DNA of 64,000 bases from Candidatus Woesearchaeota archaeon. GTDB lineage: Archaea; Nanobdellota; Nanobdellia; Woesearchaeales; UBA10216. Location of the stretch: contig JACPTG010000004.1 in assembly GCA_016192905.1 (NCBI GenBank), positions 5,745 through 69,744 of the forward strand, given 5' to 3'. Below are positions 1 through 26,049 of this stretch, piece after piece (the first letter of the stretch is position 1; the number at the start of each line of letters is the position of its first letter). Position numbers and translations under genes: made by a program. The notes beneath the pieces were generated by a model, which was not told where the DNA came from, did not search any database, and saw only the letters and a list, made by a program, of their open reading frames with translations.

Positions 1-3000
1 CAGCCCTGGCCAACAGTGCAGGTCTTGAACTCCAAAGCACAGGAGCCGCCGCAGTCAACATCAGTCTCCACAAACTGGTCCTTAACCCTGTTGCTGCATG
101 AAGACTCAGCCGAACTGCACCTTCCTGAGATGCACTTGCTCCCTAAAATGCAGTCGCCATCCTCAGAACAGGTCTGCGTGTCCTGGCACTTCCTGCCCAT
201 GCGGCTGCAGGAGCCGCCGCAATCCACGTCAGACTCGCCAACATCCCTGAACCCGTTAGAGCATGAATCTGTCTGGACTGAACACCGCTTGAACAGACAG
301 TAATTGGAAATGCAGTCAGCATTCTGGACGCAGGTGGCATTAAGCCTGCAGTCAGAGCAGGAGTTTCCGCCGCAGTCAACATCAGACTCGTTGCCATTCC
401 TAACATTATCGCTGCAGCTTCCACGCTTACAGGCACCTGAGCTGCAATAATAGCCGTCCCTGCAGTCTTCATTATCAGTGCAGCCTCCCCCGCCACCGCA
501 AGACCTGCAATCCCTGCCTCCGCAGTCAACGCCTGTCTCATCCGCATCCTTCTCCCTGTTATCGCAGTGATTGGACGAGCGGCCAAGCTCAACCTCAACA
601 TTCGCAGACCTGCCCTCAGCGCTTGTGTTCCCTGCATTGTTTGTTGCCTTTGCCTTCACGTAATAAAATGAATGGTTTGCGAAGCTAAGGCCTGTAACTG
701 TCTCCTCCTCGGCAGAAGTCCGCGTCCAGTTCACAATCAAAGTGTTATTCTCGGCGTAGTAAACAGAATATTCGTAATACTGGATGCCTGACTCATTATC
801 CACCGAATGCCAGCTTGCCCTTATCCTGTTTGAGAATGTTGAAACCTCGCCGTCCCTTGAGCCGTTCACAGACGGAGCAGACGGAGGAGTGGTGTCGACA
901 GTGAAGTCAGCCCTGGTGGTGGCGGTTGAGCCTGCAGCTGAAGTGCAGGTGAACTGGAACGAATACCTGCCCTCAGCGAGGCTAATCGTGGCCTGGTGTT
1001 GCCTTCCTGCCGGGCCGAAAGATGTCTGCTGCGAAGAGTTCTGAGAGTAAACGCACGAAGCCCGCTTGCTTGTCCTCGCGCCGAAAGCAACCTGCCTTGT
1101 CGGATAATACTGCCGGTAGTCAGGCTCAACCATGAAGGGAGCGCTTGTGTTCACCAATATGCCTATCTGGACCTTAGCTGAGAGGTTCCCGACCTTATTC
1201 ATGCACTGGAAGGTATAGTTGTTAACTGAATTGTCAACGAGGTCAGTGATGTTCTGCTTCCACAACGGCTTATAGGAGGAAGACTCTGACTCGTCTGAGC
1301 CAGCAAATGGAGTCATGGCGGAATAAGCCGCGTCAAAGGACTTTGAATAGCGGCAGACCACCTGCTGATTGGAAGTGACAGTGGCAGTGGAAATAAACGG
1401 AGTCTCGACAGAGACTGTGTCATAAAGGTTCTCCGCAGCCACCTGAATCTGCGGAGCATCGCTAATGACTGAGAGGGAAAAAGTGGATGCATTATTCTTG
1501 CCGCTGCCTGTACGGCAGGCAACGTGGACAACGCCACTGCCGATACCGTTAAGGCCGGAAACAGAATGACGCAAACCAGAAGAAGACGCGGAAAGCAACT
1601 GGCTCATAAGGTCGTAGTTGCGCTGGGTAAAGTCATACCTGCACGAAGCAGCCTGCAATGTCTCCACTGCAAGCGTGTACGGAATGCCTGTAAGCGCGCC
1701 AAGGGCAGGCTCAACAAGATAAACCGGGAAGGATGTATTCGCAACAATGGTTATGTTGGACTTCAAGGACAGATTACCGACCTTATTGACGCACTGCACT
1801 GTAAAGACGTTCACTGAATTATCAGCCAGGCCAGCCACCGGCTGCTCATGTGAAGCTGCGTAAGCAGACTCCAAGTCCTCATCATAACCAGCAAACCCGG
1901 ACATCTCGGCGAATAAATCCTGATAGACCCTTGTGTACCTGCACTGGACATCCTGGTCTGACTGAACCCTGATTGAAGAAGCAAGCGGAATAGCCGAGGC
2001 ATTGTCTGCTGTTAAGGTTATTGTTGCATTGTCTTTGAGAACTGTCAGGGCAAAGTCCTCCTCCACAGGCTGGCCGCCAGGAGCCTTGCAAGCCACATAC
2101 ACGTGGCCTGCGCCCAGGGATGTGAGGGGGGTGCCGTAGCTGTTTGGACCGGTAATTGACTGGTAAGGCACCAGGCCTTGAGTCATTGAATCATAATGCG
2201 GCTGAGTAAGGCTGTACCTACATCCATCAACAGGCACTGACGTGCCCACAGCAAAAATGAAATTATTGCCAGGCGTAAAGCCGAACCTCGGCTTGAGAAG
2301 TGCAATGGTCAAGTCGCCTGAAGGCGGGGTGACGCAGGCACCGTTATTATCGCAAACCCTGCCATCGGGACAGCGATTCTCAGCACTGCAAGGCACGCAC
2401 ACACCGGCAGAAGTGCAAACCCTGCCGCCAGTGCAGGGGTTTGAAGCGCTGCACTCGGGCTCGGATGAGCACACTCCATTATTGCACGCCTGACCAGAAG
2501 CGCAGCTAGTTCCTGAGTCCCACTCAAGACACGAATCCGAGTCATAATTGCCACAAGTCCGAACTTTACCATCAGAACTGCAAGACCTGGAGCCGGAGGG
2601 AGAACAACCATCAGAGCATTCAGCCACACACTGGCCATTCTGGCAAACCTGGCCAAGAGAACAGGCAGGGGTGCACGCATTCGGGTCAATGCACTGGCCG
2701 TTAACGCAGCTCCTGCCAGCAGGACAATCTGTGAAGAGCACGCAGCCAGAAGTGCACGCTCCATTTACACAGCGCTGGGCTGCCGGGCAGTGGGTATTGT
2801 CATAACAAAGGCCTGAGCACTGGCCGTTAACACAGCGCTGGCCCTGACTGCACTGGGAACTGTCAAGGCAGCCTGCAATGCAGCCGCCTCCAACACAAAT
2901 CTTTTGAGAGGGACAGTCACTGTTAATTGTGCATGCAGAAGTGCAGGCTCCGCTTACACACCTGCCTCCCTGGCACTGTGAATCCTGAGTGCAGCCAGTG

Positions 3001-6000
3001 CCTGCCGAAACGCAAGAGCCGTCAACACACCTCTGGCCTGAGCCGCAGTGCGAATTGCTGTAGCATGCAGAGGAGCAGACTCCTGCCACGCAACGAAGCA
3101 TCGGAGACTGGCAGCCTGAATCTGAGATGCACGCCGCGGAGCATACGCCATTTATGCAATTTTGCCCTGAAGGGCACTGGTTCTGGGAAGAGCCGAGTTC
3201 GCAGCTTCTGCCCTGGCAGATTCCATTCACGCATCGCTGATTATCCGGGCAGTTTGTATCAACCAGGCATGCAGATGTGCACTCGCCGCTGACGCATCTT
3301 GTATTCGGCGGGCAGTCATTTATGGATATGCAAGCAGAGCTGCAGACGCCATTGATGCAACGCCTCTCAACTGGGCACTGCGAATTCTGGCCGCAGCCAG
3401 GCGAGGGCACGCAAACACCCTGGATGCATCTCCCATTTGAACATTGGCTGTCAGAAGCACAGGCAGGAGCTGTGCAAACGCCATTCACGCAGCGCTGACC
3501 CTGCTGCTGGCAATTTGAATCAAATATGCAACTTGAGCTGCACTGGCCATTAACGCAGCGCGGCGTGCCAGCAGGACAGTCATTATCCACCATACACCCT
3601 GAAACGCAGCCGCCATTAACGCAAGGCTTACTGTTCAGACAGGGCCTTGAGTCGCTGCACTCTGAAAGGCATGCTCCGTAATAGCACCTCTGGTTTGCTC
3701 CGCAACCTGTATCTGACGTGCATCCGGTTCCTGCAGCAATGCAGGCTCCATTCAGGCACTTCTGAATGCCAGTGCAATGGGAATCAGAATAACATGCTGA
3801 CGAACAGGAGCCGCCAATACATCTGGTCCCCTGAACTGGGCAGCCAGAGTCTGAAGCGCAAGCAGCAGTGCACTGGCCACTAATGCAGTTCTGACTGTTC
3901 TGACAGTCACTCCTGGTAGAGCAGGAGCCGCCAGAGCAGATGCCATTGGAACACTGCTGGCCTGAAGAGCAATCGGATTGTGAAGTGCAAACAGCCACGC
4001 AAGCGCCGCCGGAAGAGCACTTTGTGCGGCTAGGACACTGAGTGTCTGAATTGCAGGCAGTAGTGCATGCGTTGTTTATGCAGCGGGGAACCGATGACGG
4101 GCAGTTTTCGGCAGACAGGCAGCCAGGAGCAGGAATGCAAAGGCCTGCAATGCATCTTTTATCAGACTCGCACTGGGCATCTGAAGCACAGGCAGCCTGG
4201 CACACTCCAGCCACACACTTCTGGCCGCTGCTGCACTGCGAATTATAGACACACGCTGAACTGCAGGCTCCGTTAAGACACCGCTGGTTTGAATTGCAAG
4301 CAGTGTCAGCAAGGCACCTCTGAACGCACGCGCCATCAACACACACCTGACCCTCCTGGCACGGACTGGCCTGACTGCAGGCAGGAGGAGCCACGCACTG
4401 ACCTGAGGGGCAAGGGTTGAGAGTCCCAGACCTGCCCTCAGCACTGACCAAGCCGCCCCTATTCGTTGCGCGAACCTTGGCATAAATCAGGTGATTGTCC
4501 GAAATGATGGTAAGCATAGTGGCACTGGCCTGCGCTGTCCTTGTCCAAGCAAGCAGCTCGGAATTGTTATTCGCATAATAAACAGAATACTCATAATACT
4601 GAATCCCTGACTCAGCATCCGATGAACTCCATGTTCCCCGTATTCCAACACCGGCGCTTATTCCCTGGCCACTAACAGCCTCAATAGTGACAGTGGGCGT
4701 TGACGGAGGGGTGGTATCCACCACAAACCGCTTGGTAAGCGAAGCTGACTGGCCTGAGGACGAAGTGCAGTCAACGGTGTGAGCATAAAGGCCGTCCTGA
4801 AGCTCAAGGCTGGCTGAATGAGCCAAACCAACCTCGCCGAAAGAAACTGGCTGGCCTGAGCCGGGAGTGTAAGTGCACGACGCCTTCTTTGTTGTGCGAA
4901 CGCCGAAAGAAACTGTGCGTGTCCTATAATAATCGCTGTATGAGGAAACAATGCCAAATGGCGCCTTTGTATTCACATCAATAGACTTTGTGACTTTGTT
5001 GGAAAATGTTCCGACCTTATTCATGCACTGGAACGTGAAGCTATTTACAGCCTCATCAACAAGGTCAGTTATATCCTGCTGCCACGAAGCCTTATACGAG
5101 GAAGCGGATGACTCGTCAGAGCCTTCAAATTGAGTCATGGCAGCATAAGCCGCATCCGCCTTCTTGGAATAACGGCAGACAACCTTCTGGGTTGAAGTGA
5201 CGGTGGCAGTGGCAAGCAGGGGAACCTCAGCAGAGAACGTGTCAGTAACATCATCAGCAGCCACGCTAATGGAAGGCTCGCCGCTCACAAGCTCCAAATC
5301 AAACGTCGTAACGTTAACCTTGCCAACAGGACCAGAGCAGCCAACCCTGACATAGCCGCTGCCAATCCCCTGAACATTAGCTGCCGAATGACTCAAACCA
5401 GAGGAACCAGCAGCAAACCTATTAGCCATCCGCTCATACCTCGTCTGCAAGAAATCATACCTGCACGAAGCTGGCTGATTGGTAGTTACCCTCAGAGTAT
5501 ACGGAACGCTTGGCAAGGCGCCAAACCTCGGCTCAACCAACGCTATAGGAATCGTGCTGTTAGCCAAAATCGAAACATTAGCCTTCATTGACAAATTGCC
5601 AACCTTATTCATGCACTGAACGGTATAAACATTCACAAAGCCATCCCTAAGGTCAGTAAACGGCTCAACATTAAGAGGCAACACATGCGCTTTCTTATAA
5701 GCAGACTCCAAATCCTCATCATAACCAGCAAACCGCGACATCTGAACGAATGAGTCCTCATACCGCTTAGTAAACCTACACTGAACATCCTGATCAGACA
5801 CAACAGAAATACTTGACTCAACAGGATAACTGGAAGTATCACGGCCAGTGAGGGTGATAGTTGCATTGGTGTTAAGGATGGCAAGGCTAAACCTCTGCTC
5901 ACTCAAAGCACCATCAGCAGCCCTGCAGCCAACATACACAAAGCCCTCCCCTACGCTGTTAAGGCTTATGCCATAATAGTTAATTGTGCCAGACTGCAAG

Positions 6001-8804: not shown

Positions 8805-8946
8805 CCCTTAAACAGCCTTTTAAAATTCACCCTTTATTATATTTTGCCTTATTCAAAGACTTAGGTGTAAATTTAACCGCCATTAAGTGGCTTATAAAAC
8901 TGTTAAACTAACCTTAATTTGTTCACTGCCTTTATTGGGTTGAACC

Positions 8947-9435
8947 CTACTCTGTCTTGCCGAACTCCTGGAGAATCTTGCGCTGCTCAGAATGCTTCTC
9001 CTTCAGCCGCTTCTCATAAATGTCGCGCTCATACCTGCTCATCACCATGTAAAGAGGGCTCTTCTGGGCCTCGGCATGGAGCTGCGCGGCCGCTGACAGG
9101 GGAACTGCCTTGGGCTGAGCCTTACCAGGCTTTGATTTCCTTAGAAGCATGAAAGCGGCGAAGCCAAGGCCAAGCACGCCGACTCCGATAAGAACAGGCA
9201 CGAGAAGGCCACCCAAAGGACTGCCAGCCTCCTCGGCCTCAGAAGAGGAACCTGAAGATGAAGAGGAGCCTGAAGATGGGGTACTGCCTGAGCCTGCTGC
9301 GGGTTGCTGGATGCTCCGGTCAGGCGGCGGCGGAGGCAGCGGAGGGCCATCATCTGCATCATGATAATTGGCAGCGGCAAATGAAGCCGACAAAACAGCC
9401 AGCGACGCTATCAGCACAATCAAAAAAGGCCTCAT
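8947..9435 (-). CDS. Small single-pass membrane protein (signal peptide, Pro/Ser-rich stalk, TM helix, charged tail)
   Basis: The track ORF 8947..9444 starts at GTG. The first ATG at 9435 gives MRPFLIVLIASLAVLSASFAAA. A PPPPPPD and SSGSSSSSGSSS low-complexity stretch is followed by a hydrophobic LLVPVLIGVGVLGLGFAAFMLL segment. No family recognised. Confidence 0.55.
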   Translation of the reverse strand: MRPFLIVLIASLAVLSASFAAANYHDADDGPPLPPPPPDRSIQQPAAGSGSTPSSGSSSSSGSSSEAEEAGSPLGGLLVPVLIGVGVLGLGFAAFMLLRKSKPGKAQPKAVPLSAAAQLHAEAQKSPLYMVMSRYERDIYEKRLKEKHSEQRKILQEFGKTE

Positions 9436-9502
9436 GATGGACACCTTTGCAAGGCATCAACAATCCTCATATATGAAGTTTGCGGTTGCGTTTTGGAAAG
9501 AC

Positions 9503-10147
9503 TCATTTCGCACCTTCAGAACCCTGGGGCCTGCGGCGGATGAAGATAAAGACGACAACCAGAGAGACAATGGCCACGGCAGCAACCACAGGCAGGACAG
9601 GGAATGAGGGCTTAACAGCAACTGGGATGAGCTTAACGCCTGCCGCGGCTTTTGGGCAGTCAGCCTCGCACTGCTCGCCCTCGGCGCAGATGGAGTCGCC
9701 ACAATAACTATTCAGATGCGCCACTCCAATATCAAAAATTTTTCTTCCACCGATGTCATAAACACGTACGAAAGAAGCATTCGGTGAGTATGGGAGATAT
9801 AGCTGGACAAATGTTGACTCCACTTCGGGCATTGGTTGAGCCTCGGGTACTATGATTTGATTTCCAGAGCGATCAAACCAAGAACCATTAGCCAGAAGCT
9901 GAATTTCGGTAGGAAATTCAAATGTGACTAAGTAAAGTTGGGAACCGTCTTGGCCAATCAACTCAGCTCTGTAACCATATTCAGGCCCCTTTTCAGGAAA
10001 AAAATATACTTGCATAGCATAAGGAAGCTTATATGAAATATTTCCATGAGAATACTCCAGTTCGATAACGTAAACCCTTTCATAAGCAGCATAAGCTACG
10101 GGGGCAAGTAAAAATGCCAGAAAAACGTACATTAAAACATTTTTCAT
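9503..10147 (-). CDS. Secreted, C-terminally anchored small protein, paralog of 15107..15952
   Basis: The ATG at 10147 (aa 43 of track ORF 9503..10273) gives a signal peptide, MKNVLMYVFLAFLLAPVAYAA. The protein ends ...CGDSICAEGEQCEADCPK...SFPVLPVVAAVAIVSLVVVFIFIRRRPQGSEGAK. The longer track start would overlap the end of the upstream giant gene. Confidence 0.75.
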   Translation of the reverse strand: MKNVLMYVFLAFLLAPVAYAAYERVYVIELEYSHGNISYKLPYAMQVYFFPEKGPEYGYRAELIGQDGSQLYLVTFEFPTEIQLLANGSWFDRSGNQIIVPEAQPMPEVESTFVQLYLPYSPNASFVRVYDIGGRKIFDIGVAHLNSYCGDSICAEGEQCEADCPKAAAGVKLIPVAVKPSFPVLPVVAAVAIVSLVVVFIFIRRRPQGSEGAK

Positions 10148-10202
10148 TTTATCCCCCCCAAGCTCCATCTCCGCAGAATACATCCATTCATGATTGGCAG
10201 GA

Positions 10203-15029: not shown

Positions 15030-15057
15030 GTGTCTAAGCAACTAAATTTTAACCACC

Positions 15058-15065
15058 ATATATAT
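15058..15065 (-). promoter_or_regulatory. TATA-like box upstream of giant 2
   Basis: The minus strand reads gatatatatg, centred about 32 nt upstream of the ATG at 15029, in the 65-nt spacer after the stop of 15107..15952. Confidence 0.4.
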
Positions 15066-15106
15066 CTTGCTGTGATTGCTGTGAGCAATGCAGACTTATG
15101 GGAACC

Positions 15107-15952: not shown

Positions 15953-18900
15953 GGTATGCTGAGTGTGAACTCAACCTCCAAGCTGGTTGGATTAATATTG
16001 CCTGAAATATCCTTGCACTTCACGAATTTCTTAATTTTCCCATTCCATTCCTTTGTGTAACTGTATGCCTTCAAATGAGTCTTCAGATCTGTATCCCTAT
16101 CCAAAACTGTAGCCATTTGATCAAAGGGAACATCTGAACCTCCCACCCTGCACGTTGCCGGTTCGTCTGTGGACACCTCGATTGTCACATCACCGGATGT
16201 AACCAGAGGGGCGGGTCTCACCAATGTGACAACCGGAGGGGTCTTGTCAGAAGCGCTTCCCCCAATAACATTGAAGTCCCTTGAGACGCCGTTATTCGGA
16301 TGGCGAAAAACCATCCCGATTTCAAAATCCGTGACAGTTGCATAAAAAGTGTGCCTGCCTGATGTGAATTTGCTCTCGTACTCACATGGCGCGGATGTAC
16401 ATGTTTTGACAGGTGTTGCACCAGCATCCACATATATCTTGTACCTATAGAGCCCTGTTAGGCTGCTTACAAGCCTGATTTTTACCTGGTCGGCAGTTGT
16501 GGGGGAGGCGGGGTTATTGACAAGGGTTAAAAGCCCCCCTCCACCGACTGATAGATATAATTCCTCGCTGGAGCCTGAGCCTAACCTTGCTGAGTCGGCT
16601 TTTCCAGATACAACAAACATATTTGGCTCTGGGAAAGTTACTGTCAAAGAACATGAGGCGCTGGAGCACTCCTTCACGCTGCGGTCATCAAGGCTGATTA
16701 TAGTGAGATCTGTGTCGGCAAGCTTGCTTCGAACATTTATTGTTACAGGCGAGCCTGCGACCGGCCTTTCAGGCGAATACGAAACATCAACCAAACTTAT
16801 TGCGGGAATTGATATAACTGCGTTACCCGCCGGGAACCTTACCTTATTGCCTGACTTGCCTGTGGCGACTGCATAATAATTCCTGTAAACATTCCGATTA
16901 GTCAGACGAAGAGCGTAACTGCAGGTATTGCTGAAACAGGTGGCCTCTGGGGAGTTATCCATGCCAACGAAAATATCTATCTTGTGCACATCAGGCGAGT
17001 CGCTGGCAGCAGTTATCGTAACTGACTGGCCAATAAACCCTGTTTCAGGGGTATGATAGGCGCTGACAGACAAAGCCTTTGGTCTCGCTGTTCCAGAGAA
17101 AGAGCCGAGGCGCGCGCCAAGCAGCTTCTCATTCCAGGAGCCAAAGGCGTAAGGGTTGGCAAAAACATTTCTCATAATGCTGTTAAATACGGAGCGGAAA
17201 ACCCCCTTATAATAAGCGCAGCCATCATGACACCCAACCTCCAAGTTATAGTTTGCATCAGACTCCTTACAGTCGACCACGCCATCGCTTCCACATCCGT
17301 TTCCAATCAGCCTAGACCACGGGGCTGCTGCCCTGCACTGGTCAGCTGTTACAGGCCTGGAAGGCACATCATAGCAGTTGCCACTTTGACGAATCGAGAA
17401 TAAAGGATTGCCGCGGTCTTCTTCATACTCATCCATAAGGCCTCCAAAGGCATGGCCGAACTCATGCACAACAACACGGGAGCACACAACCCCTGTCTCA
17501 CATTCCTTCCTCACCAGACTGCACGCAGGTTCATTACCATCAGCATAGGCCAAACAGCCCCGCCTTACATTCACCTTTAGACAGGACTCCACTTCGCTGC
17601 AAAGATCAGGATATGAGACGTAAGCATTCCCCTCCAAGTCAGCGAATGCCCGAAACTCGGCGTTTATGAGAAAAACTATATGGCTGTTTGGCATGGCACA
17701 CAAGCCGCCGAAACTATTTAACTCAGATTGCAGATCCTGACTGCCAGAATAACCCTTAAAGTCGCCCTTAAGGACGTCTATATACCAGAAGTTAAACTTG
17801 CCCTTCCCGGATTTAAACGGCTCCAATGACAACAGCCCCGCAGGCCCCTCGACAGAGTTCCGGGCGTACTTAATGAAGTTTTCCCTGCTCTTATATGCCA
17901 CTCCGGCAAAAACTATATTGGCCCTATCACCATCTGCAAGATTGTGGCCTGGAATAAGCTCCTTGCAGACGCCGCCCTGGACCAGGTTCAAAGTTTTTTG
18001 CTCAGACCTTCTGATAGGGCCACGCAACTCCCTCACATCAGCTGAAAACGCCACAGAATACTTCCCCGGAACCAACCCTAAAGTGCTGAAAACGCCGCCA
18101 AACACCTTATCATTCGCAGCCCCATCACCATGATTGCCATCATCAAAAATCTGGATGTTGCCCACCTTCCTGCCTGACTCATCAAACAGCGATGCCTCAG
18201 GCTTCTCAAAAGGCAATGACGAACTGACAGCAGCCCTTACAGAGGCAACAGTTCCAACAACTGCGGACTGGGGGTTTACATTCAACGCCACTGAATACTC
18301 AGAGGTATCAGTGCACTTTCCCTCAACACATTTCAGGCCTCCAAGGCACTTGGAATCTACATCGCATTCTGCCTGCAGGCATTTTCCGCCACTGCAGTAA
18401 TTGCTCTCGCAGTCTTGGGCTGAAAAGCATTGTTGATTGTAACTACATTTCCGCGGGCAGGCCGAGCCGCAGTCAGTATCTGACTCTGCCGGGTCTTTTG
18501 CCCTATTCCCGCATTTGGAAGCGTCAAAGGCGCATTTTCCAGAAGCGCAATAATCAGACAGGCAATCTGCGCCGGCAGAGCACGCCCTGCTGTTTGCACA
18601 CCGAGCCATGCATACTCCACCACAATCAACATCAGACTCGCCTGAATCCAAATTTCCATTGCCACAGCTAAAGCTGCGAAGCTTAAACCTCAGAGCCCCA
18701 TTATAGGGCATTCTCTTGCCGAGAGATGAGCGCTCGGAGTCGCTGACAATTTCGAGGCCGTCAAACGCAGCCTCTGCCTTTCCCTTATCATACACCAACT
18801 CTTTACTGTCTGCATTATAGACTTCGCCGTTTATGGCAACAGACTCCACAAAAAGCTCAGGAGGCTTGGTCTTGAAGATGTAATCATCAAAGCCTGCAAA

Positions 18901-20634
18901 GACCTTCTGGTCATAGGACAACGGAACGGTGTTGGACGAGAACTCCTCAGCAGAAATATCCACAAAATACCAGTCAGAGCAGCCGCCATGCTCGTAATCC
19001 ACGTCATGATAGAACCCATTCGGGTTGTTGGGGTCAACGCCGCAATTCCTGTTCCACGCCCTGCGGCCATCCTCATGGACGAACGACTGCACAAGCCTGA
19101 GCTCGTCCTTGTCATTCCTGAAAATGAAAGTGTCAAACCCTGCGAACTGCTTCTCCTCATCTGAAAGCAAGCCCTTAGCAGGGTCCCTGAACTCCTCAAG
19201 CTTAAGGTTAACAAACCTCCAGTCATCACAGCCGGGATAGTTGTGCTCAGGCCGCGGCGGGCCTGAAAATCCGTGGACATATCGGCCGTCAACAGGACAC
19301 CTCCTATTCCAGGCACGCCAGCCATCCTTATGGACAAAGCTCTGCACCAGCGTATACTTGCCCTTTGAATTAAGAAACTTCATGTCATCAAAGCCTGCAA
19401 AAGTCAAATCAGCCTGGGAAAGAAGCTGCCCAGGCTTAGCCGGGTCAGGAAACAACTCATCCCTCAGGCTTACCAGATTCCAAGATGAACAGGATGAAAG
19501 GTCAATCCCGCGCACTCCTGTACCATCCACAACACAGTCCCTGTTCCACGCACGCCAGCCATCAGAATTCACCACTGACTCAACAATGCGTAGCTTTCCT
19601 GTAGAGTCCTCAAAGACAAAGTTATCATAGCCGTAAAACTTCTGCTCGCCAGAACCCAGGGGCTGGCCTTCAAAAAGCATCCTTTCATTACTAAAAAAGG
19701 CCTCCTGCCAGCCTGTGCAGTCTGCGTTTCCACTTGGAAGCCTGGCAATCCCATTCCTGTCCTTGGCATCCATGCGGCAGGACCTGTAATAATATTTTGA
19801 AGAGTCCTTAAGGACAAATGTCTGGACAATGCGATCCTCTGCCTGATCTGCATTCACAAAAACAACAGCCACCTCCTTATCAGTCGAATAGTCTAAGTAT
19901 ACTGCCTTGTATTCCCTGTAATCAGCTGAATCCTCAACCACCCACTCCTTAATCTTGCTGCCTCCAACCCAAAGCTGCACCACAGCTCCACGCTGTCCCT
20001 TAGCCCTGACAACAAAATTTGCCGGGACCTTCCTGACAGGAACTGTCTCCTCTCCTGGAAGAACCCTCTCCCCCGTCCCCTGACCTGGCTCCGTACTTGT
20101 GGGAGGAGGTGTGCTTGTAGGAGGAACTGTGCCTGTTGGAGTGGATGAGCCCGGAGGTGTGGAAGACGCGGGCCCTGCGCCAGAGGAAGAAGCGCCTGTT
20201 GCAGGAGTAGTTCCTGTCGCTGGAGGAGGCGATGCAGGCTTCTCCCTGCAAAGCTGGTCGCACTTCTTTCCTGATTCTATCGGATAATACGTGTTGCTGC
20301 CTGTGCAAGCGGATTTAACCCGCACAGTGCCGTCAGGGCAGCAGCAACCCCTATTGCACTCCACCACACTGCTGTCGCTGCAATCCTTGCCTTCCTTAAA
20401 ATAAGGGGTCAGACAGGCCTGCTGGGTTTTCTCAATACCTGAATAAAACCTTGGGTAATCAGACGGAGGGGAAGGACAACATTGATTTGCGGTCACCCGG
20501 GATGTTGTGCACAAACGCTCAATGGCGTTAGGGTTCACGCAGCAGCCGTCAGCAGCCTGCACAGCCACTGCAATTACAAGAACAGGGGCTAAAATGGCGA
20601 GCAGCATTAGAATGCGGCGAATCAGCTTGTGCAT
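15949..20634 (-). CDS. Giant secreted mosaic protein (giant 3) with an M64-like HExxH metalloprotease domain and C-terminal Ig-like domains
   Basis: 1,561 aa with ATG at 20634. The signal peptide is followed by the same CCVNPNAIERLC...CCPSPPSDYPRFY...CCCPDGTVRVKSAC head and a P/T/S-rich linker. A split CBM-like module carries IVESVVNSDGWRAWNRDC, LVQSFVHKDGWRAWNRRC and LVQSFVHEDGRRAWNRNC repeats. DRANIVFAGVAY and VVVHEFGHAFGGLMDEY are present (HEFGH at 17452..17466). Confidence 0.9.
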   Translation of the reverse strand: MHKLIRRILMLLAILAPVLVIAVAVQAADGCCVNPNAIERLCTTSRVTANQCCPSPPSDYPRFYSGIEKTQQACLTPYFKEGKDCSDSSVVECNRGCCCPDGTVRVKSACTGSNTYYPIESGKKCDQLCREKPASPPPATGTTPATGASSSGAGPASSTPPGSSTPTGTVPPTSTPPPTSTEPGQGTGERVLPGEETVPVRKVPANFVVRAKGQRGAVVQLWVGGSKIKEWVVEDSADYREYKAVYLDYSTDKEVAVVFVNADQAEDRIVQTFVLKDSSKYYYRSCRMDAKDRNGIARLPSGNADCTGWQEAFFSNERMLFEGQPLGSGEQKFYGYDNFVFEDSTGKLRIVESVVNSDGWRAWNRDCVVDGTGVRGIDLSSCSSWNLVSLRDELFPDPAKPGQLLSQADLTFAGFDDMKFLNSKGKYTLVQSFVHKDGWRAWNRRCPVDGRYVHGFSGPPRPEHNYPGCDDWRFVNLKLEEFRDPAKGLLSDEEKQFAGFDTFIFRNDKDELRLVQSFVHEDGRRAWNRNCGVDPNNPNGFYHDVDYEHGGCSDWYFVDISAEEFSSNTVPLSYDQKVFAGFDDYIFKTKPPELFVESVAINGEVYNADSKELVYDKGKAEAAFDGLEIVSDSERSSLGKRMPYNGALRFKLRSFSCGNGNLDSGESDVDCGGVCMARCANSRACSAGADCLSDYCASGKCAFDASKCGNRAKDPAESDTDCGSACPRKCSYNQQCFSAQDCESNYCSGGKCLQAECDVDSKCLGGLKCVEGKCTDTSEYSVALNVNPQSAVVGTVASVRAAVSSSLPFEKPEASLFDESGRKVGNIQIFDDGNHGDGAANDKVFGGVFSTLGLVPGKYSVAFSADVRELRGPIRRSEQKTLNLVQGGVCKELIPGHNLADGDRANIVFAGVAYKSRENFIKYARNSVEGPAGLLSLEPFKSGKGKFNFWYIDVLKGDFKGYSGSQDLQSELNSFGGLCAMPNSHIVFLINAEFRAFADLEGNAYVSYPDLCSEVESCLKVNVRRGCLAYADGNEPACSLVRKECETGVVCSRVVVHEFGHAFGGLMDEYEEDRGNPLFSIRQSGNCYDVPSRPVTADQCRAAAPWSRLIGNGCGSDGVVDCKESDANYNLEVGCHDGCAYYKGVFRSVFNSIMRNVFANPYAFGSWNEKLLGARLGSFSGTARPKALSVSAYHTPETGFIGQSVTITAASDSPDVHKIDIFVGMDNSPEATCFSNTCSYALRLTNRNVYRNYYAVATGKSGNKVRFPAGNAVISIPAISLVDVSYSPERPVAGSPVTINVRSKLADTDLTIISLDDRSVKECSSASCSLTVTFPEPNMFVVSGKADSARLGSGSSEELYLSVGGGGLLTLVNNPASPTTADQVKIRLVSSLTGLYRYKIYVDAGATPVKTCTSAPCEYESKFTSGRHTFYATVTDFEIGMVFRHPNNGVSRDFNVIGGSASDKTPPVVTLVRPAPLVTSGDVTIEVSTDEPATCRVGGSDVPFDQMATVLDRDTDLKTHLKAYSYTKEWNGKIKKFVKCKDISGNINPTSLEVEFTLSIP

Positions 20635-21542
20635 ATCACTTCACCAGTATACTGTTTTTTTGAAGCAAATTTAAGGTAGCTTGAATCGGGAAGCCCGGGG
20701 TCAAGCGCAGGATTGTCCAGCGCAAACAGGTAGAGATTCTTGGTCACGCCGCTTACAGCCAAGATTTTCTCACCTTTTTTTCCCGGCTTAATTGTAATCT
20801 CTCCCTGACCGGACTTCTTATGCCTTGGCCCAGACCAGTCTGTACCCTGACAGTTATCTAGGATGGTCTGGGCGACCTTGGCCGCCTCATCATATGAAGC
20901 CATGAATGGGCTGTTTGAAGACCATGAAAAGTCAGAAAAAAGGTACTCTGAGGCACCGTCATGCACTGTCACGTTGGCCAAAAGCTGGACAAACATTTCC
21001 TTGTCGTTAAGGAGCGTGACTATATCAAAAGACTGCCGCTCAATTTCAACATCATAGCCTATGGCTTTCATTTTGGCAGCCACATCGCAAACCACTTTTG
21101 AATTTGCAGGCGGCGTGTAACCTGGACAAATATCGGCGTTTGCAGGCCTACTGCGAGGGTTCAACCGCATAGACAGGTATGCCTTCAGCCGCTCGGCGAG
21201 CCTTTCCTTATCCTGCCTGTGAACAACAAGCTCTATAGGCCTCTCGTCAAGAATATATGCGACCTTATAATCCCCATCATTAAACGCCTCTCCCTCAGTT
21301 ACGGGGTCTGAGGAATCACCGCCCTGACTGCAATAGATGTAGCCGCCCTGGCGTGCAGCCAGCTCAAGCCCTGCTGCAGCCGTGGATGCAATGCACTGCT
21401 CAACATAAGCCCTGACCGGCGCTGCGCTGTCATAACTCTTCAGCTTCACGCTGCTCTTTGGGGAAGTCACCCAGAAGACTATGCCTGCGGACACCATGAG
21501 TAGGACACCTATTATTATGAATACAGAGACCTGCGCCCTCAT
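20622..21542 (-). CDS. Membrane-anchored protein with pilin-like (class III-like) N-terminus
   Basis: 306 aa. The N-terminus is MRAQVSVFIIIGVLLMVSAGIVFWV (short basic N-terminus, then Q, then a hydrophobic helix). Its ATG overlaps the giant 4 stop (ATGA at 21539-21542) and its 3' end overlaps the giant 3 start by 13 nt. Confidence 0.8.
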   Translation of the reverse strand: MRAQVSVFIIIGVLLMVSAGIVFWVTSPKSSVKLKSYDSAAPVRAYVEQCIASTAAAGLELAARQGGYIYCSQGGDSSDPVTEGEAFNDGDYKVAYILDERPIELVVHRQDKERLAERLKAYLSMRLNPRSRPANADICPGYTPPANSKVVCDVAAKMKAIGYDVEIERQSFDIVTLLNDKEMFVQLLANVTVHDGASEYLFSDFSWSSNSPFMASYDEAAKVAQTILDNCQGTDWSGPRHKKSGQGEITIKPGKKGEKILAVSGVTKNLYLFALDNPALDPGLPDSSYLKFASKKQYTGEVICTS

Positions 21543-24500
21543 TTTACCCGTAAGCCTGAAGTAAGGGAAGTCCAGGCATCAAACAGCCTGCTGTCAGTGC
21601 CAGGAGACCTGCTGGCTGTTATTGACTGCCTTGAGCCTGACCTTGAGCAGCTGTTCTGCTGGATAGCGTTGGAGGCTGCGCAGAAGTCTGTGTTGAAGTT
21701 ATCGTATGACACTGAAAGCTGCTCTACCTGGGAACTGCCTGAGCAGCCTGAAGTTACAGAGCCCTCAATTTTCTTTCCTGATGCAGCGGACATTGAATAC
21801 AGCTTCTGCAGCCCAGAGCCCTTCTTCAGCTCTGAAGCAGCAGACCTTATGGAATTCCATTCTGAAGCAGGGCTGAAGCCAGCATTGTTATAAAAGAAAA
21901 TTCCTGTTGAGCTGTCGAAGTATAGATACTCGTAACCTGAGTAGCACTGGGTAAGGCCTGCTGGCTGTGATGAAGTGCAGGAGTATCCTTGCCTCTGCGC
22001 CTCATTAACAATGCTGTTAAGCTCTGCCACGACATCCGGAGATGAAACTGCGCCGCCAAATGCAACGAAACTTGCCCCCGAATCCTTGTGCTCAAGCACG
22101 CACAGGTCTGCAATGCATGGCTCGGGCTTATTGGAGAGCGGGCATGGCGACTTTAGCAGCGTTTCGGCAAGCCTGGACTCAGCGTAAAGATAATCATACC
22201 TGTTCAGAACCTCACCATACGGGCCGCAGACAAGGGCTGACTCAGGCCTCCTCTTAGCCTTGAAGTCAAGCAGCATGGAAGCGACAAATTTATTCTTTGA
22301 AACCCAGCTGCCTGAACTGCAGACAGCGCTGCCAAGCGAGCCGCCTGAAGCAACGCACCTGCTGGCCTGGCTGTCGTAACACTCACCAGCAGTGCAGCAG
22401 CCCTCCATGCAGCCGTCCTGACCCTTCCTTACGGTTTCACCATTATCGTCACCACAGCAAACTCCTCCAACAGTCCTGCACTGGGTAATCCTGAAGGCAC
22501 CAGCCCACTTCAGCCGCTCAGGCCCTATTGAACGCCTATCTGATTCGGGAACTATGTCATTGCCGTCGAATGCTGCCGCTGCGGCGCCCTTATCGTATAT
22601 CACCCTGCTGAAGTCCTCAGCCTCAATCTTATTGCCATCTATGGCTATGTAATCCACAAGCAGGTCCCGGTCTCCAGGCTGATTTGAAGTGAAGATGAAG
22701 TTGTCATTCGCAAACAGCTTCCCATCAGGAGCGCCCGAAGGCTCATCACCGATAGGAACGAACCTCCAGTCGTCACAGCCGCCTGCACCCCGCTTCAAGC
22801 CCTTTGGATCAGCAGGGTCAACACGACAAACCCTGTTCCACGAGCGCTGGCCGTCGCTATGTATCAGGGAGTGGATGAGGCTGTAAGAGCCGTCAGCCTT
22901 CTGCCACGCAAGTGTGTCAAATCCTGAGAAAACAGAATCGGCCGGGGAGATCTCATTTCCGGCTGCGTCCTTGAAACCCTCTCCCACCAGACTTCCGCCG
23001 CTGAAAGCAGAGCAGCCGCCGAAGCCGAACTCAGAGGAATCCTCAACGCAGAATCGGTTGAAATAACGCTTGCCATCCTGCTGAATAAGCGTCAGGACAA
23101 GCTGCTGCCTGCCCTGAGAGTTGGTAAAAACGTAATTGTCCAAGTCCCTGTACTTCCTTGCCGACGCGTCAAGCCCTGTGTCAAGCTCTGAGAGGTCCCA
23201 TGTTTTGAACTCGCCGCATTTTTGCACAGTGGTGCCGAACATGGAATCAGGAAGAACCTCGCACTTCCTCCTGAAGGCGAGCACGCCATCCTTGTCAATG
23301 AAAGTCTGCACAATATACTCCTTACCATTGACGGTATACACGTACTTGTCATGGCCTATGAATTCCTGATTCGCATCTGGAATTGAGTTTCCAGACTTAT
23401 CCTTAATGCTGATGCCGGTAACGTCCACAGCGCGGTAAGCCTCACAGTCAGCACCGTCAATGGGATGGTAGCCGTCATTGCGCAGCGGGCATCTCCTATG
23501 GTAAACAGTCCTCTTATCAGAGCCGACAAAGGACTGCACAACCCACTTCACCGCAGCGGTCTCATAGTCATCAGGAAATACGACTGCAATCTCCTGGCCT
23601 GGTGTATAAGAGAGGGGGACAGAGTAATCTGCATACTGGTCAGAATTCACAGACCACGACTGCAGGAATTGGTTGTTGACAAAGACTGCCATGTGAGGCC
23701 AGCCAGCGCCATTCTGGCCCTTGGCGCGGACAGTGAGCTGCCTGCCTGCACCAATGCGAAGCGAGCCAGCATAGCTAATCAGTTCCCTGGAGCTAAGAGT
23801 ATACAGATTATCAAACCACTCTGCCTCAGAGTTACCCTTATCATAAAAAACCCTAGCGGGGTCCTCAGCCTGAACTGTCTCAGAGCCGATTGTTATTGAA
23901 TCAACAATCAAATTGCGGTCAGTAGGCCCTGACAAGCTGAAGCTGAATGTGTCAAAGCCCGCGAACAAGCCTTGGCCTGCGTTAACTGTTCCATCGGCAT
24001 TATAGACTATTTCCTGGCTGAGGTCAACAAACCTCCAGCCTGTGCATTTTGCAGGGTCTATCCCGTGCAAGCCGACGCCCTCAACAGGGCAGACACGGTT
24101 CCAGCCCCGGCGGCCGTCATTATGAACCAGCGACTGGACCATCTGGAGCTTTGAAGATGAATCTGTGAAAAGGTAAGTGTCAATCCCTGCGAATACCTTG
24201 TCGCCTGCTGCGAGCTGGGCTCCATCAGCGCCCTTGACCTCCTCGTCAGCCATGTTCACCTGCCGCCAACTTGAACATGTGGAGGGGTTATAGCCATAAG
24301 CATTGGCGCCGTCATAATCACACTCCCGGTTGAAACCCAGGCTGCCTGACTTTGCGGACAATGACTGGACTATATGCTTCCGGCCGCCGGCATCTGCGAA
24401 GATGAAGTTGTCCATGTCTGAGTAAGCGCGGGCAGCGGAATCCACTTTTGTATCTTCAGAGGCTAAATTCCAAAGCTCCCAAGGGGTGCAAGTGGCAGGA

Positions 24501-25900
24501 TTAACAGAATGGGGAAAGGCACCGTCATACTGGCATTTGTTGCGCCAGGCACGCTTCCCATCCTGATGAATCATTGTCCTGACAAGGTACTTCTTTCCAT
24601 CCGAGCCATCATAAAAATATGCGTCAAAGCCGGCAAGCCTGTGATCTGCCGCAGAAAGAATGCTGCCTGCTGCATCAGTCACCCCTTCAGTTGTCAAGTC
24701 AACCTCATTCCATCTTGAGCAGGTCTGGCTCTCAAAGCCATGGAGGGAATCTGCCTTGAAAGAGCACCGCCTGTTCCAGGCCTTATCGCCAGTTTTAGAA
24801 TAGAAGGACTGCAAAACATACGAAGGGCTCTGCTCTGAATAGTAATCAATGGGAAACACCACTGCGACCTCATCACCCTGCGTGTACCCAGAGGGCAGCT
24901 TTGCCTCGTAAACAGCAGGCCTCCGGTAATTATCAACAGTCCACTCAGCGAACTTGACAAAGGAATTGCCTGACTTCCTGTAAGCCTGCATCAAAGGAAG
25001 GCCGTTGCCCTGGTCAGCAGATGCGACTATCCTGATTGTTGGAACAGCAGCTTCCTGGCCTATCCTGAAATTCCTGCCAGCAAGATTTCCAACGCCACAG
25101 GGCTTCCTCACATGAACCCACCAGCTGTAAGCAACCCCAGGCTGGACATTAACTGTAATTGAATTGGAATTGTAGCTGTTTATGCAGACAAAATGCTGGT
25201 TGCAGTTATTCCGGCTGTCCTTAGCAATATTCTTCCCTGGGGTGTCCACGTTTACCCTTATGTCATAGGTTGCGCCTGCCACAGGCTCCCACTCCAAAGT
25301 AACCTCCTGCGTGGAAGCTTGAAATGTCTGGGCCTCAGCAGGGCTTTTCGGGGTGGGCTGACTGGGGGAACAAGCGGATTCGCAAAGCCTATACTGCCTT
25401 ACCCTGTCGCCATGCAATTCCTTCAGCACGCCAAGGTCAACCTTGCCGTTCTCACACGCAGGGAGATTGCAGAGAGGAGATGCAGAACCTTCGCATGACT
25501 TAAGGCTTGGGGAATTCGCAGCACCCCCTTCCAAGGGATTAAGGCAAATCCTGTACTTCCTAACTATCTTGTTGTCATTGTGAAAGCCCTCATAAACGCC
25601 AGCCTCAAACATGCCTGAAGGGCAGGCAGGAGGATTGCAAGTGCCGCCGCCCCCTGTACTTCCCTCACAACCCCTGACCTCGCCGCCGGCACTGGAGCAC
25701 AAACGGTATCCAGTAACAGACTTATCAGCCGAGCCGTAGTTATCGTGAATGTTATTCGTAAGGCCGACTGAGCCTGAAGGGCACTGGCCTGGCTCGCAGG
25801 CAGCGCCATTATCAGAGCCGCATTCCACCACGGCTGCACTGGCTGAGAAAAGTGCCAGAAGAAGGATAAATGGCACCAAAATCAGCTTTATCGCACCCAT
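21539..25900 (-). CDS. Giant secreted mosaic protein (giant 4) with two tandem split CBM-like/WNR-repeat modules and no protease motif
   Basis: 1,453 aa with ATG at 25900 and signal peptide MGAIKLILVPFILLLALFSASAA. It has three ~50-aa Cys units and an Fn3-like segment. Two modules follow, each with four repeats (for example QMVQSLVHNDGRRGWNRVC and SLIHSLIHSDGQRSWNRVC), closed by DRNLIVDSITIGSETVQAED and DRDLLVDYIAIDGNKIEAED. Confidence 0.9.
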   Translation of the reverse strand: MGAIKLILVPFILLLALFSASAAVVECGSDNGAACEPGQCPSGSVGLTNNIHDNYGSADKSVTGYRLCSSAGGEVRGCEGSTGGGGTCNPPACPSGMFEAGVYEGFHNDNKIVRKYRICLNPLEGGAANSPSLKSCEGSASPLCNLPACENGKVDLGVLKELHGDRVRQYRLCESACSPSQPTPKSPAEAQTFQASTQEVTLEWEPVAGATYDIRVNVDTPGKNIAKDSRNNCNQHFVCINSYNSNSITVNVQPGVAYSWWVHVRKPCGVGNLAGRNFRIGQEAAVPTIRIVASADQGNGLPLMQAYRKSGNSFVKFAEWTVDNYRRPAVYEAKLPSGYTQGDEVAVVFPIDYYSEQSPSYVLQSFYSKTGDKAWNRRCSFKADSLHGFESQTCSRWNEVDLTTEGVTDAAGSILSAADHRLAGFDAYFYDGSDGKKYLVRTMIHQDGKRAWRNKCQYDGAFPHSVNPATCTPWELWNLASEDTKVDSAARAYSDMDNFIFADAGGRKHIVQSLSAKSGSLGFNRECDYDGANAYGYNPSTCSSWRQVNMADEEVKGADGAQLAAGDKVFAGIDTYLFTDSSSKLQMVQSLVHNDGRRGWNRVCPVEGVGLHGIDPAKCTGWRFVDLSQEIVYNADGTVNAGQGLFAGFDTFSFSLSGPTDRNLIVDSITIGSETVQAEDPARVFYDKGNSEAEWFDNLYTLSSRELISYAGSLRIGAGRQLTVRAKGQNGAGWPHMAVFVNNQFLQSWSVNSDQYADYSVPLSYTPGQEIAVVFPDDYETAAVKWVVQSFVGSDKRTVYHRRCPLRNDGYHPIDGADCEAYRAVDVTGISIKDKSGNSIPDANQEFIGHDKYVYTVNGKEYIVQTFIDKDGVLAFRRKCEVLPDSMFGTTVQKCGEFKTWDLSELDTGLDASARKYRDLDNYVFTNSQGRQQLVLTLIQQDGKRYFNRFCVEDSSEFGFGGCSAFSGGSLVGEGFKDAAGNEISPADSVFSGFDTLAWQKADGSYSLIHSLIHSDGQRSWNRVCRVDPADPKGLKRGAGGCDDWRFVPIGDEPSGAPDGKLFANDNFIFTSNQPGDRDLLVDYIAIDGNKIEAEDFSRVIYDKGAAAAAFDGNDIVPESDRRSIGPERLKWAGAFRITQCRTVGGVCCGDDNGETVRKGQDGCMEGCCTAGECYDSQASRCVASGGSLGSAVCSSGSWVSKNKFVASMLLDFKAKRRPESALVCGPYGEVLNRYDYLYAESRLAETLLKSPCPLSNKPEPCIADLCVLEHKDSGASFVAFGGAVSSPDVVAELNSIVNEAQRQGYSCTSSQPAGLTQCYSGYEYLYFDSSTGIFFYNNAGFSPASEWNSIRSAASELKKGSGLQKLYSMSAASGKKIEGSVTSGCSGSSQVEQLSVSYDNFNTDFCAASNAIQQNSCSRSGSRQSITASRSPGTDSRLFDAWTSLTSGLRVK

Positions 25901-25986
25901 TTTTTACAGCTTAAGCTACGCCTGAAAAACCGGCTGGCAGGTATATAAATGTTGCGAATGGGTTTTATCTTAACTTTAATGAAAAA

Positions 25987-26049
25987 TAGCAGGCTGTGGC
26001 TTCCTTGGATTCAGCAGCCCCTTTCAGGAGACCAGTAGCGTGAACCGCC
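25987..26049 (+). repeat. MITE-like intergenic repeat, copy A (L-arm type)
   Basis: Sequence is tagcaggctgtggcttccttggattcagcagcccctttcaggagaccagtagcgtgaaccgcc. It shares the identical 18-mer aaatagcaggctgtggct with copies B and F and ends with the same gtgaaccgcc as copy F. Confidence 0.8.

Follow-up and report, generated by a model that had tools for sequence, protein, structure and literature searches.

What purpose do four giant secreted proteins serve when one archaeon encodes them in a single uninterrupted run? The question is raised by positions 1–25900 of the 64,000-nucleotide stretch analyzed here (contig JACPTG010000004.1, assembly GCA_016192905.1), which we refer to as the window. 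This region holds eight consecutive co-directional minus-strand frames and no credible plus-strand gene. In order of transcription, the frames encode the giant G4, the small protein p306, the giant G3, p281, the giant G2, p256, p165, and the giant G1. A sequence-only reading had described eight minus-strand signal-peptide genes here and had proposed an adhesion/proteolysis apparatus that matched no known system as a whole. We found every frame at the place and size given, with a hydrophobic N-terminal segment in all eight products. With moderate confidence, we interpret the locus as encoding a cell-surface attachment apparatus of an uncultured, probably DPANN/Woesearchaeota-like episymbiont archaeon, built on a conserved core of three genes (G4, p306, and G1).

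The gene arrangement, with its tightly coupled operons, supports an archaeal locus for mosaic surface proteins that are either secreted or anchored. An ATGA overlap joins the stop codon of G4 to the start codon of p306, another joins G3 to p281, and the p306/G3 junction is a 13-nt overlap; read directly from the DNA, these junctions chain the first four genes exactly as had been claimed. A/T-rich TATA-like boxes lie upstream of G4, G2, p165, and G1. Because a second, C-terminal hydrophobic segment occurs only in p281, p256, and p165 (the C-terminus of G1 lies outside the window), G2, G3, and G4 themselves lack an anchor. The Cys content of the giants ranges from 3.4 to 9.0%.

A three-gene core shared with distant loci

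Three G4-like proteins from other contigs placed the locus in a wider context. P0006, on an ENA contig, is a full-length G4 homologue (41% identity in a MAFFT alignment), while P0007 (GCA_053533195.1) and P0008 (GCA_016192945.1; named by NCBI as a Candidatus Woesearchaeota archaeon protein) are 27–31% identical to G4 and carry both the four-repeat domain described below and the C-terminal domain. On all three contigs, a gene for a protein of 250–331 amino acids (aa) overlaps or abuts the G4-like gene downstream. At the two loci with readable DNA, L006 and L007, this small gene is a p306 homologue, and the next gene encodes a giant with a CC-rich head that is an orthologue of G1 rather than of G3. 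The G1 orthologues comprise 2166 aa in L006 (phmmer E = 0) and 1560 aa in L007 (E = 2e-286). They are 36–39% identical to G1 over its first 640 residues and over the immunoglobulin (Ig)/DxDCGG part, and at the C-terminus they carry TSP3-like DxDxD repeats, then a transmembrane (TM) helix with a charged tail of ~110 aa. Four small proteins follow (171–195, 340–351, 156–172, and 177–178 aa), most of which start with K-[AGS]-Q and a hydrophobic stretch; in the 340–351-aa pair, KKG-x-IGEQ comes first. Both loci also contain two additional same-strand giants upstream (L006 1–7352 and L007 1–8118) with no counterpart in the window, one of them Cys-rich and the other (1266–1389 aa) with a prepilin-like start, KRGQITLFIIAG or KKAQITIFIIAA.

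Loci of the same gene order had been suggested as a check in related archaeal genomes. The whole order was found in a sister metagenome-assembled genome (MAG), GCA_964504135.1 (contig CAZDCW010000001.1), whereas the distant loci share only the G4-p306-G1 core. Start-stop overlaps of the ATGA or GTGA type recur across the sister and the Woesearchaeota loci. Because the order of G4-like, p306-like, G1-like, and small genes recurs in distant Woesearchaeota loci, we conclude that G4, p306, and G1, together with the small prepilin-like set, formed the ancestral unit. We take G3, p281, G2, p256, and p165 to be insertions specific to the window lineage, since no homologue of the p281 family or of p165 was detected in the distant loci; G2 and G3 share the G1-type head. 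What had been taken for a super-locus without a match is not a one-off, but a lineage-specific expansion of a core that Woesearchaeota MAGs also have. Searches of metagenome contigs with a 40-mer from the window end and with the G4/P0006 alignment gave no match.

The description of p306 as pilin-like holds for its N-terminus only, which the distant homologues keep. This N-terminus, MRAQ-VSVFIIIGVLLMV, also written MRA/QVSVFIIIGVLLMVSAGIVFWV (-1 = Ala) and MRAQVSVFIIIG, follows the class III signal peptide pattern of a short basic start, A at -1, and ~20 hydrophobic residues. The homologues L006_14134 and L007_13852 (phmmer E = 8e-19 and 2e-16) start with RKSQVTIFIIAG and KKSQITIFIIAG, with the cleavage-type starts RKS/QVTIFIIAG and KKS/QITIFIIAG. 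No pilin or archaellin model matched p306, and neither Pfam nor NCBIfam (the latter run on all products except G1) gave a match even at E up to 1. No secretion ATPase, TadC/FlaJ platform, or prepilin peptidase was found among the window genes or in the 24-kb loci L006 and L007.

These observations bear on a more specific version of the attachment reading, in which p306 and the small prepilin-like proteins form a short (pseudo)pilus or tip displaying G4 in the way that bacterial minor pilins carry PilY1, as in a type IV filament tip or priming complex, with G1 as an envelope-spanning, S-layer-like companion. We regard this version as possible but rather unlikely. It would account for the start shared by p306 and its homologues ([KR][AGS]Q followed by ~20 hydrophobic residues), for the like N-termini of the four small proteins after the G1 orthologue and of one upstream giant in L006 and L007, and for the conservation of gene order and of overlapping start and stop codons. 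PilY-like and other large adhesins have also been described in archaeal type IV pilus (T4P) loci (PMC4858521; 10.64898/2026.04.22.720090). However, p306 matches no pilin model of Pfam or NCBIfam, the ATPase, TadC, and peptidase are not near the locus in the window, L006, or L007, and Pfam detected no PilY1/PilC propeller or DUF2341 domain in any giant. The four small genes, moreover, are not seen in the window, and class III signal peptides are found on non-pilus surface proteins too.

The remaining small proteins are of two kinds. In p281, a signal peptide precedes a beta-rich ectodomain that closes with CGDSVCxxGExCxxDC; a TM helix then leads into a cytoplasmic tail rich in Q and P. p256 is a paralogue of p281 (46% identity). 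p281 had no match in Pfam, NCBIfam, or the PDB, where a profile search with the p281 family came back empty. p165 combines a signal peptide, a Pro/Ser-rich stalk, a TM helix, and a charged cytoplasmic tail. Its tail, IYEKRLKEKHSEQRKILQEFGKT (window 8947–9100), resembles by eye the tails of the distant G1 orthologues, IIRKRETGLASQRSEILSEFEAK and IIKKREKDLSTKRKELLKSFETE (L006 ~21150–21449 and L007 ~19250–19531); the motif common to them, I[IY]xKR…[QK]Rx[EK][IL]Lx[ES]F, hints at a common intracellular docking site.

Table 1. Features of the surface-protein locus, in order of transcription (window coordinates).
Feature	Position	Strand	Description
G4	21539-25900	-	1453 aa; secreted giant without membrane anchor
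Two split-CBM60 modules of G4	22481-25054	-	Located by module alignment and repeat HMM
p306	20622-21542	-	306 aa; prepilin-like (class III type) N-terminus
G3	15949-20634	-	1561 aa; secreted giant
p281	15107-15952	-	Type I membrane protein
G2	10203-15029	-	1608 aa from first Met (ORF of 1612 aa from TTG); secreted giant
p256	9503-10147	-	214 aa from the internal Met preceding the signal peptide; anchored p281 paralogue
p165	8947-9435	-	162 aa; signal peptide, stalk, TM helix, tail
G1	3-8804	-	At least 2934 aa; open at left window edge, C-terminus beyond window

Domains of the giant proteins

Four modules in the window (G4 residues 283–722 and 719–1140, G3 195–655, and G2 165–612) share one design, consisting of an N-terminal part of CBM60, four 78-aa repeats, and a C-terminal part of CBM60. 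The sequence-only reading had noted a split CBM-like module carrying an unrecognised repeat; Pfam, stitching, and an alignment to vCBM60 agree in assigning the module to CBM60, and no Pfam family matches the repeat. Native G4 residues 722–779 score 53.3 bits against Pfam CBM60 (PF16841; gathering cut-off 28.2 bits) over profile positions 2–60 of 91. When the intervening ~330 aa were removed and the joined flanks were rescored, the match extended to profile positions 2–88 of 91 in G4b (50.9 bits), 1–89 in G4a (33.7 bits), 6–78 in G2 (29.4 bits), and 2–87 in G3 (24.0 bits, under the cut-off). The alignment of a stitched module to the solved vCBM60 structure (PDB 2xfd; E = 8e-6) runs straight across the junction, with AVVFPDDYET/GDRDLLVDYIAIDG opposite RVAFTNDA-TG-RDVQVDYIVVNG, and places the insertion in the loop equivalent to FTNDA-TGRD (NDATGRD) of vCBM60. 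Because the stitched halves regain a near full-length CBM60 match and align with vCBM60 across the junction, we assign the split module to CBM60 proper, one loop of which has received a further domain. The native proteins contain no contiguous CBM60 beta-jelly-roll of ~90–110 aa, the C-terminal part lying ~330 aa downstream.

The repeat unit follows the pattern LVQSFVHKDGxRAWNRxC ... HG ... CxxWxFVxL ... FxGFDxFxF and occurs 16 times in the window, with eight units in G4 as scored by a repeat hidden Markov model (HMM). An AlphaFold2 model of G2 165–612, based on a six-sequence alignment, reached a predicted local distance difference test (pLDDT) score of 85.7 and a predicted template modelling score (pTM) of 0.79, and modelled the inserted domain as all-beta with four-strand units. 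The top PDB matches of this model in Foldseek were beta-propeller fucose lectins (AOL, FleA, AofleA, and a Kordia lectin), together with glycosidase and sialidase propellers and vCBM60 itself. Matches to the AAL-type lectins had E = 1.4e-5 and a probability of 1.0, but TM-scores of only 0.25–0.34 and a root-mean-square deviation of ~20 Å. Because these TM-scores are low, we use the term lectin-like propeller for a modelled resemblance and not as a family assignment.

An exhaustive profile search of 1.84 billion representative proteins returned 345 matches. Within this search, only window proteins, the orthologues of the sister MAG, and P0006 had the complete split module. By itself, the four-repeat domain accounted for ~50 of the best 150 of the 345 matches and was nearly always present in four copies, either in ~320-aa proteins without a Pfam domain or together with dockerin, TIG, Ig-like, or DUF922 domains; the dockerin-bearing protein P0023 carries it in free-standing form. 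This four-repeat beta domain seems itself to represent a domain family that has yet to be described. The ~320-aa free-standing proteins (e.g., P0017, P0018, and P0025) are secreted or lipoprotein-like and have two Cys per unit. A word-indexed homologue search gave no match with the module alignment and at least four matches with G3; a chimeric query of G4, the G1 N-terminus, and TopA gave at least one match, which was irrelevant.

The four giants differ in how they combine these modules with other domains. G4 comprises a signal peptide (1–23), three Cys repeats of ~50 aa (24–178), an Fn3-like stretch (179–282), the two split-CBM60 modules, and a Cys-rich C-terminal domain (1141–1453) that is conserved in P0006, P0007, and P0008; the AlphaFold2 model of this domain was poor (pLDDT 63.6), and Foldseek found nothing for it below E = 0.01. 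G3 comprises a signal peptide, a CC-rich head (28–135), a P/T/S linker, a split-CBM60 module, two DxDCGG modules, a choice-of-anchor-X motif (828–861; the sole addition from NCBIfam), an M64-like HExxH domain (~885–1186), and beta-rich C-terminal repeats. G2 comprises a signal peptide, a CC-rich head, a split-CBM60 module, six DxDCGG modules, beta domains, an M64-like HExxH domain (~1151–1470), and three terminal DxDCGG modules. G1 comprises a signal peptide, a CC-rich head (33–135), a conserved Cys-rich N-domain (136–612), DxDCGG modules, two Ig/Fn3-like blocks of ~740 aa that are 47% identical to one another, ~640 aa of Cys hairpin repeats, and terminal DxDCGG modules.

All-against-all BLAST confirmed that the giants draw on a shared toolkit, as had been proposed, although not every giant has every part. 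The CC-rich head (~105 aa) is common to G1, G2, and G3, and the DxDCGGxC six-Cys modules number six in G1, nine in G2, two in G3, and none in G4. G4 lacks the CC-rich head, the DxDCGG module, and the HExxH domain, and G1 lacks the split CBM and the HExxH domain. The Ig/Fn3-like domains are suggested by sub-threshold Pfam matches (in G1, Big_13 at 26.6 bits against a cut-off of 27, and fn3 at 17.8 bits). In Pfam searches at E up to 1, no match was found for the CC-rich head, the DxDCGG array, the G4 head, the G4 C-terminal domain, G1 136–612, or p281, and PDB profile searches with the G1 N-domain were empty. The HMM, AlphaFold, and Foldseek analyses that had been suggested identified CBM60 and the M64-like domain but left the CC-rich head, the DxDCGG modules, and the G4 C-terminal domain without a match. 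Because similar DxDCGG arrays occur in P0004 from a Deltaproteobacteria MAG (38% identity over 330 aa), these modules are not specific to archaea.

The matches to peptidase M64 (PF09471) were marginal and local, at 30.0 bits for G3 and 26.4 bits for G2 against a cut-off of 26. The HExxH motif reads VVVHEFGHAFGGLMDEY in G3 and VVVHEIGHSFGRLADEY in G2, with the consensus VVVHE(F/I)GH(A/S)FG(G/R)L(M/A)DEY, and a two-sequence M64-like profile built from G2 and G3 matched the PDB entries 3p1v (E = 1.4e-8) and 4df9 (6e-8). The HExxH domain of G2 and G3 is accordingly described here as a predicted M64-like metalloprotease. Regarding the features of fibrillar adhesins, G1 has long Ig/Fn3-like and Cys arrays with an anchor in its orthologues, whereas G2, G3, and G4 are unanchored. 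The SPEARE giants of Nanohaloarchaeota exceed 5000 aa and unite serine protease, adhesion, and restriction-endonuclease domains within a single chain; Pfam found no serine protease or endonuclease domain in the giants described here.

This domain content also bears on nutrient scavenging, in which the locus would encode, instead of an attachment device, a cellulosome-like, tethered set of polymer-binding and protein-degrading proteins for feeding on plant or microbial detritus. CBM60 is a family of Ca-dependent xylan, galactan, and cellulose binding (Pfam description; PDB 2xfd), an M64-like protease is present, the four-repeat domain occurs in the dockerin-bearing P0023, and TldD/PmbA and M24 peptidases are encoded elsewhere in the window. 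Nevertheless, the Pfam and NCBIfam searches detected no glycoside hydrolase, lyase, or esterase domain in more than 9,000 residues, the conserved core giants G4 and G1 have no catalytic domain at all, and strain hypervariability and pilin-like partners suit recognition more than bulk degradation. Scavenging is therefore improbable in our judgment.

Strain variation, assembly integrity, and lineage

Comparison with the sister contig revealed a sharply uneven pattern of divergence. DNA identity is 94–96.5% in the flanks, G4, and p165, 92–95% in G1, and 89% in G3 and p281. Protein identity is 95% for G4, 88% for G3 (P0001), 90% for p165, and 91% for G1 over the 2038 visible residues of an orthologue of 3192 aa in total. 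Two stretches of the window have no blastn match in the sister contig. The first (20350–21369) takes in the p306 body and the beginning of G3; p306 is 42% identical at the protein level, with its N-terminal ~35 residues almost identical. The second (9721–13405) covers the C-terminal two thirds of G2 and p256 (47% protein identity). The sister G2 orthologue can be aligned over its first ~660 residues only, and its C-terminal region has an NHL beta-propeller where G2 of the window has the M64-like and terminal DxDCGG modules. The sister locus also has one more p281-type paralogue, and between the p281-type paralogues and the p165 orthologue (L003 17236–18477) it carries an opposite-strand gene for a 340-aa insertion sequence (IS)/transposase-like protein together with a DUF2080 gene, neither of which the window has.

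The hypervariable islands interrupt DNA that is otherwise 94–96% identical, a pattern that indicates recombination together with diversifying selection acting on certain parts and that interaction surfaces usually show. Polymorphic toxin/immunity pairs were considered and rejected, as the downstream proteins are paralogous whatever the upstream C-terminal domain and no toxin domain was found.

The same pattern bears on a structural role, in which the giants would form an S-layer, sheath, or wall matrix with no specific adhesive role. Such a role would fit large, Cys-rich signal-peptide proteins and the C-terminal TM anchor of the G1 orthologues, which many archaeal S-layer proteins also have, and Makarova et al. 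take the anchored large protein of T4P loci as S-layer-like (PMC4858521). On the other hand, no S-layer family appeared among the Pfam and NCBIfam matches (the latter covering all products but G1), the locus encodes four mosaic paralogues and not one dominant protein, and three of the giants have no anchor. A domain swap and partner identities of 42–47% between strains that are 94–96% identical would be unexpected for a lattice protein. We consider a structural role very unlikely, and an S-layer protein as such was rejected for want of domain support and by the strain variability.

Since the proteins are highly repetitive, chimeric or collapsed repeats, or decaying pseudogenes, might in principle have produced false giant reading frames. 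Logan assemblies from other sequencing runs were 100% identical to the window over 19309–27501 and 6534–14100 (15.7 kb), with an exact copy of G4 in one assembly and exact copies of p165 in contigs from at least four sequencing runs. Repeat collapse is unlikely because no direct DNA repeats of the locus exceed 88% identity, and most share 60–80%. The sister contig is collinear, with the same flanks (EndA, RNase Z, and Hjc) and intact frames of the same or similar length, the distant orthologues are full length, and stop-free frames of 1453 to 2934 codons are confined to this strand. Against this stand three Logan unitigs (L008, L009, and L010) that all stop exactly at window position 6534, inside G1, which may reflect a repeated k-mer or a strain branch point. 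The retrieved independent assemblies do not span the G1 interior (window 1–6534), which is backed by collinearity with the sister contig only, or window 14100–19309 (the N-terminal part of G2, p281, and most of G3). The check for collapsed or chimeric repeats that had been called for has, through the independent assemblies and the sister MAG, largely refuted an artefact, which we now regard as extremely unlikely.

The window is archaeal, encoding Hjc, a tRNA-intron endonuclease, FEN1, Trm5/Taw2, a PAN-type AAA ATPase, RFC, aRF1, and topoisomerase I, together with an archaeal signal recognition particle RNA (63705–63974, plus strand; 112.8 bits against a gathering score of 96.5); no tRNA gene was found in the 64 kb. 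Its non-surface genes are mainly information-processing. EndA (27736–28287) is a 183-aa single-unit enzyme, which is not the form expected in Methanosarcinales, the group given in the label of the sister MAG. Where homologues of the locus proteins bear an organism name (P0008 and P0010), that name is always Candidatus Woesearchaeota. The lineage is likely to be DPANN rather than Methanosarcinales. For eight of ten housekeeping proteins, 90% clusters had no named member and contained only this genome and its sister, save for one short-fragment cluster. The run series of the sister (SRP090828) sampled agricultural groundwater in which Woesearchaeota and Pacearchaeota are abundant (PMC5383146). 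Ultrasmall cells attached to hosts by pili-like appendages were imaged in another agricultural groundwater study (PMC7906910), possibly in the same aquifer as the sister MAG sample.

Two further features of the window lie apart from the locus. A second envelope-type cluster without Pfam matches (47688–53445, minus strand) encodes three paralogous proteins of ~310 aa with lipobox-like N-termini (…LAGC, …IAGC, and …LAGC), a 552-aa protein that may be a membrane protein, given its hydrophobic N-terminal region, and a 387-aa protein whose start, MHAKKGQSAGGAASLIAAILGLML, resembles a class III signal peptide. A 925-aa reading frame (58652–61429, plus strand) contains an intein bearing a LAGLIDADG homing-endonuclease domain.

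Function and comparison with known systems

The attachment reading can be set out gene by gene. G4 would be a secreted, unanchored giant presenting two lectin-like CBM60/four-repeat modules, and p306 would be its small prepilin-type partner, made from a start that overlaps the G4 stop. G1 would be a fibrillar, Cys-rich giant, membrane-anchored as the C-terminal TM helix and tail of its orthologues imply. Duplication and domain shuffling may have enlarged this core in the window lineage to give G3 and G2, each combining a G1-type CC-rich head, one lectin-like module, and an M64-type zinc protease, and each followed by a small type I membrane protein (p281 and p256, respectively), with p165 as an extra stalk or anchor. 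The giants would be exported by Sec and stabilised by disulfides, and we infer that each unanchored one would be retained on the cell by the protein encoded immediately downstream (p306 for G4, p281 for G3, and p256 for G2). The CBM60/repeat modules might bind glycans of a target surface, which could be a host envelope or a polymer, and the M64 domains of G2 and G3 might cut surface glycoproteins at that target. The adhesion/proteolysis apparatus of the sequence-only reading is upheld to the extent that glycan-binding CBM60, M64-like HExxH domains, and secreted or anchored mosaics are all present, its function being read from these domains.

Several points weigh against this interpretation. 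The sister MAG's Methanosarcinales label, if right, would weaken the episymbiont context. The four small pilin-like genes of the distant loci match no reading frame of the window and, if present, lie beyond its left edge, as does the C-terminus of G1; neither the window nor the DNA within 10 kb of the related loci encodes a type IV filament ATPase, platform, or peptidase. Outside this lineage, the Woesearchaeota loci included, the p281 family lacks homologues, and its partner role is one that we purely infer. The insertion in the CBM60 loop may have abolished canonical CBM60 binding, and the repeat domain resembles lectins only at the low TM-scores given above.

A bolder extension of the attachment reading would make G4, p306, G1, and the four small prepilin-like proteins an undescribed Woesearchaeota-type attachment organelle. 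In it, a pilin stalk would present giant lectin/protease heads to the host envelope, the four-repeat insert would be a new glycan-recognition fold, and swapping of p306 and of the G2 C-terminal region with p256 would set host range. We offer this extension as speculative and consider it doubtful.

Host recognition by ultrasmall, host-dependent archaea is largely unknown, and most of their giant surface proteins are unannotated. The G4-p306-G1 core is recognisable and can be searched for in further genomes, and the repeat domain is confidently modelled, with the point at which it enters a known sugar-binding module precisely defined. The two strains, 94–96% identical in DNA yet sharply different at p306 and at the G2 C-terminal region with p256, indicate which parts may determine specificity. 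The locus also links giant adhesins to prepilin-like proteins with no pilus motor next to them. If the organism is really a methanogen relative, these genes would bear on consortium or surface attachment instead.

Among known systems, some archaeal T4P loci are the closest in kind, encoding a large secreted protein, a large C-terminally anchored protein, and small Cys-rich, minor-pilin-like proteins (PMC4858521), and a census of archaeal type IV filaments found large PilY-like or Ig-rich adhesins in several subsystems (bioRxiv 10.64898/2026.04.22.720090). The locus shares with them a large signal-peptide protein, a large TM-anchored protein, small class III-type proteins, many conserved Cys, and rapidly evolving operons. 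It differs in having no ATPase, platform, or peptidase in or near it, no DUF2341 or PilY, a content of split CBM60, four-repeat domain, CC-rich head, DxDCGG modules, and M64, and, in the window lineage, two added giants and p281-type anchors. Bacterial PilY1 with its minor pilins (FimU-PilVWXE) is likewise a large propeller-containing adhesin within a small prepilin-like operon, predicted at the distal end of the filament. The locus proteins have no sequence or Pfam relationship to PilY1, and their four 78-aa repeats lie within CBM60, so that the analogy is functional only.

At the level of single domains, the split module resembles CBM60/CBM36 proteins (vCBM60 2xfd and 2xhh) in its above-threshold Pfam match, the alignment of both halves, and a Foldseek probability of 1.0, and differs in its interruption of ~330 aa and in having no glycoside hydrolase attached. 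The M64-like domains share HExxHxxGxxDEY and an upstream EPF-S-K-N motif with peptidase M64 (the Clostridium ramosum IgA protease and Bacteroides 3p1v and 4df9), but they lie within 1600-aa mosaics, contain extra Cys-rich insertions, and score marginally. The six-bladed AAL-type fucose lectins (AOL 5eo7, FleA 6z6c, and AofleA 7c3e) have similar four-stranded, blade-like repeats, although they consist of six blades of ~50 aa, whereas the inserted domain has four 78-aa repeats, each with its own Cys pair, and no sequence similarity to them. VARTIG modules of Thermococcales (PMC8416519) show the same C-terminal exchange between close strains and variable small downstream genes; their families, domains, and lineage are unrelated, and the downstream genes here are paralogous anchors without a toxin/immunity signature. 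Giant adhesin loci linked to pilin-like genes are already known in kind, and the domains described here are shared by none of those compared. Three elements are new: a CBM60 interrupted by a four-repeat domain that Pfam lacks, the conserved G4-p306-G1 core, and the islands that differ between strains.

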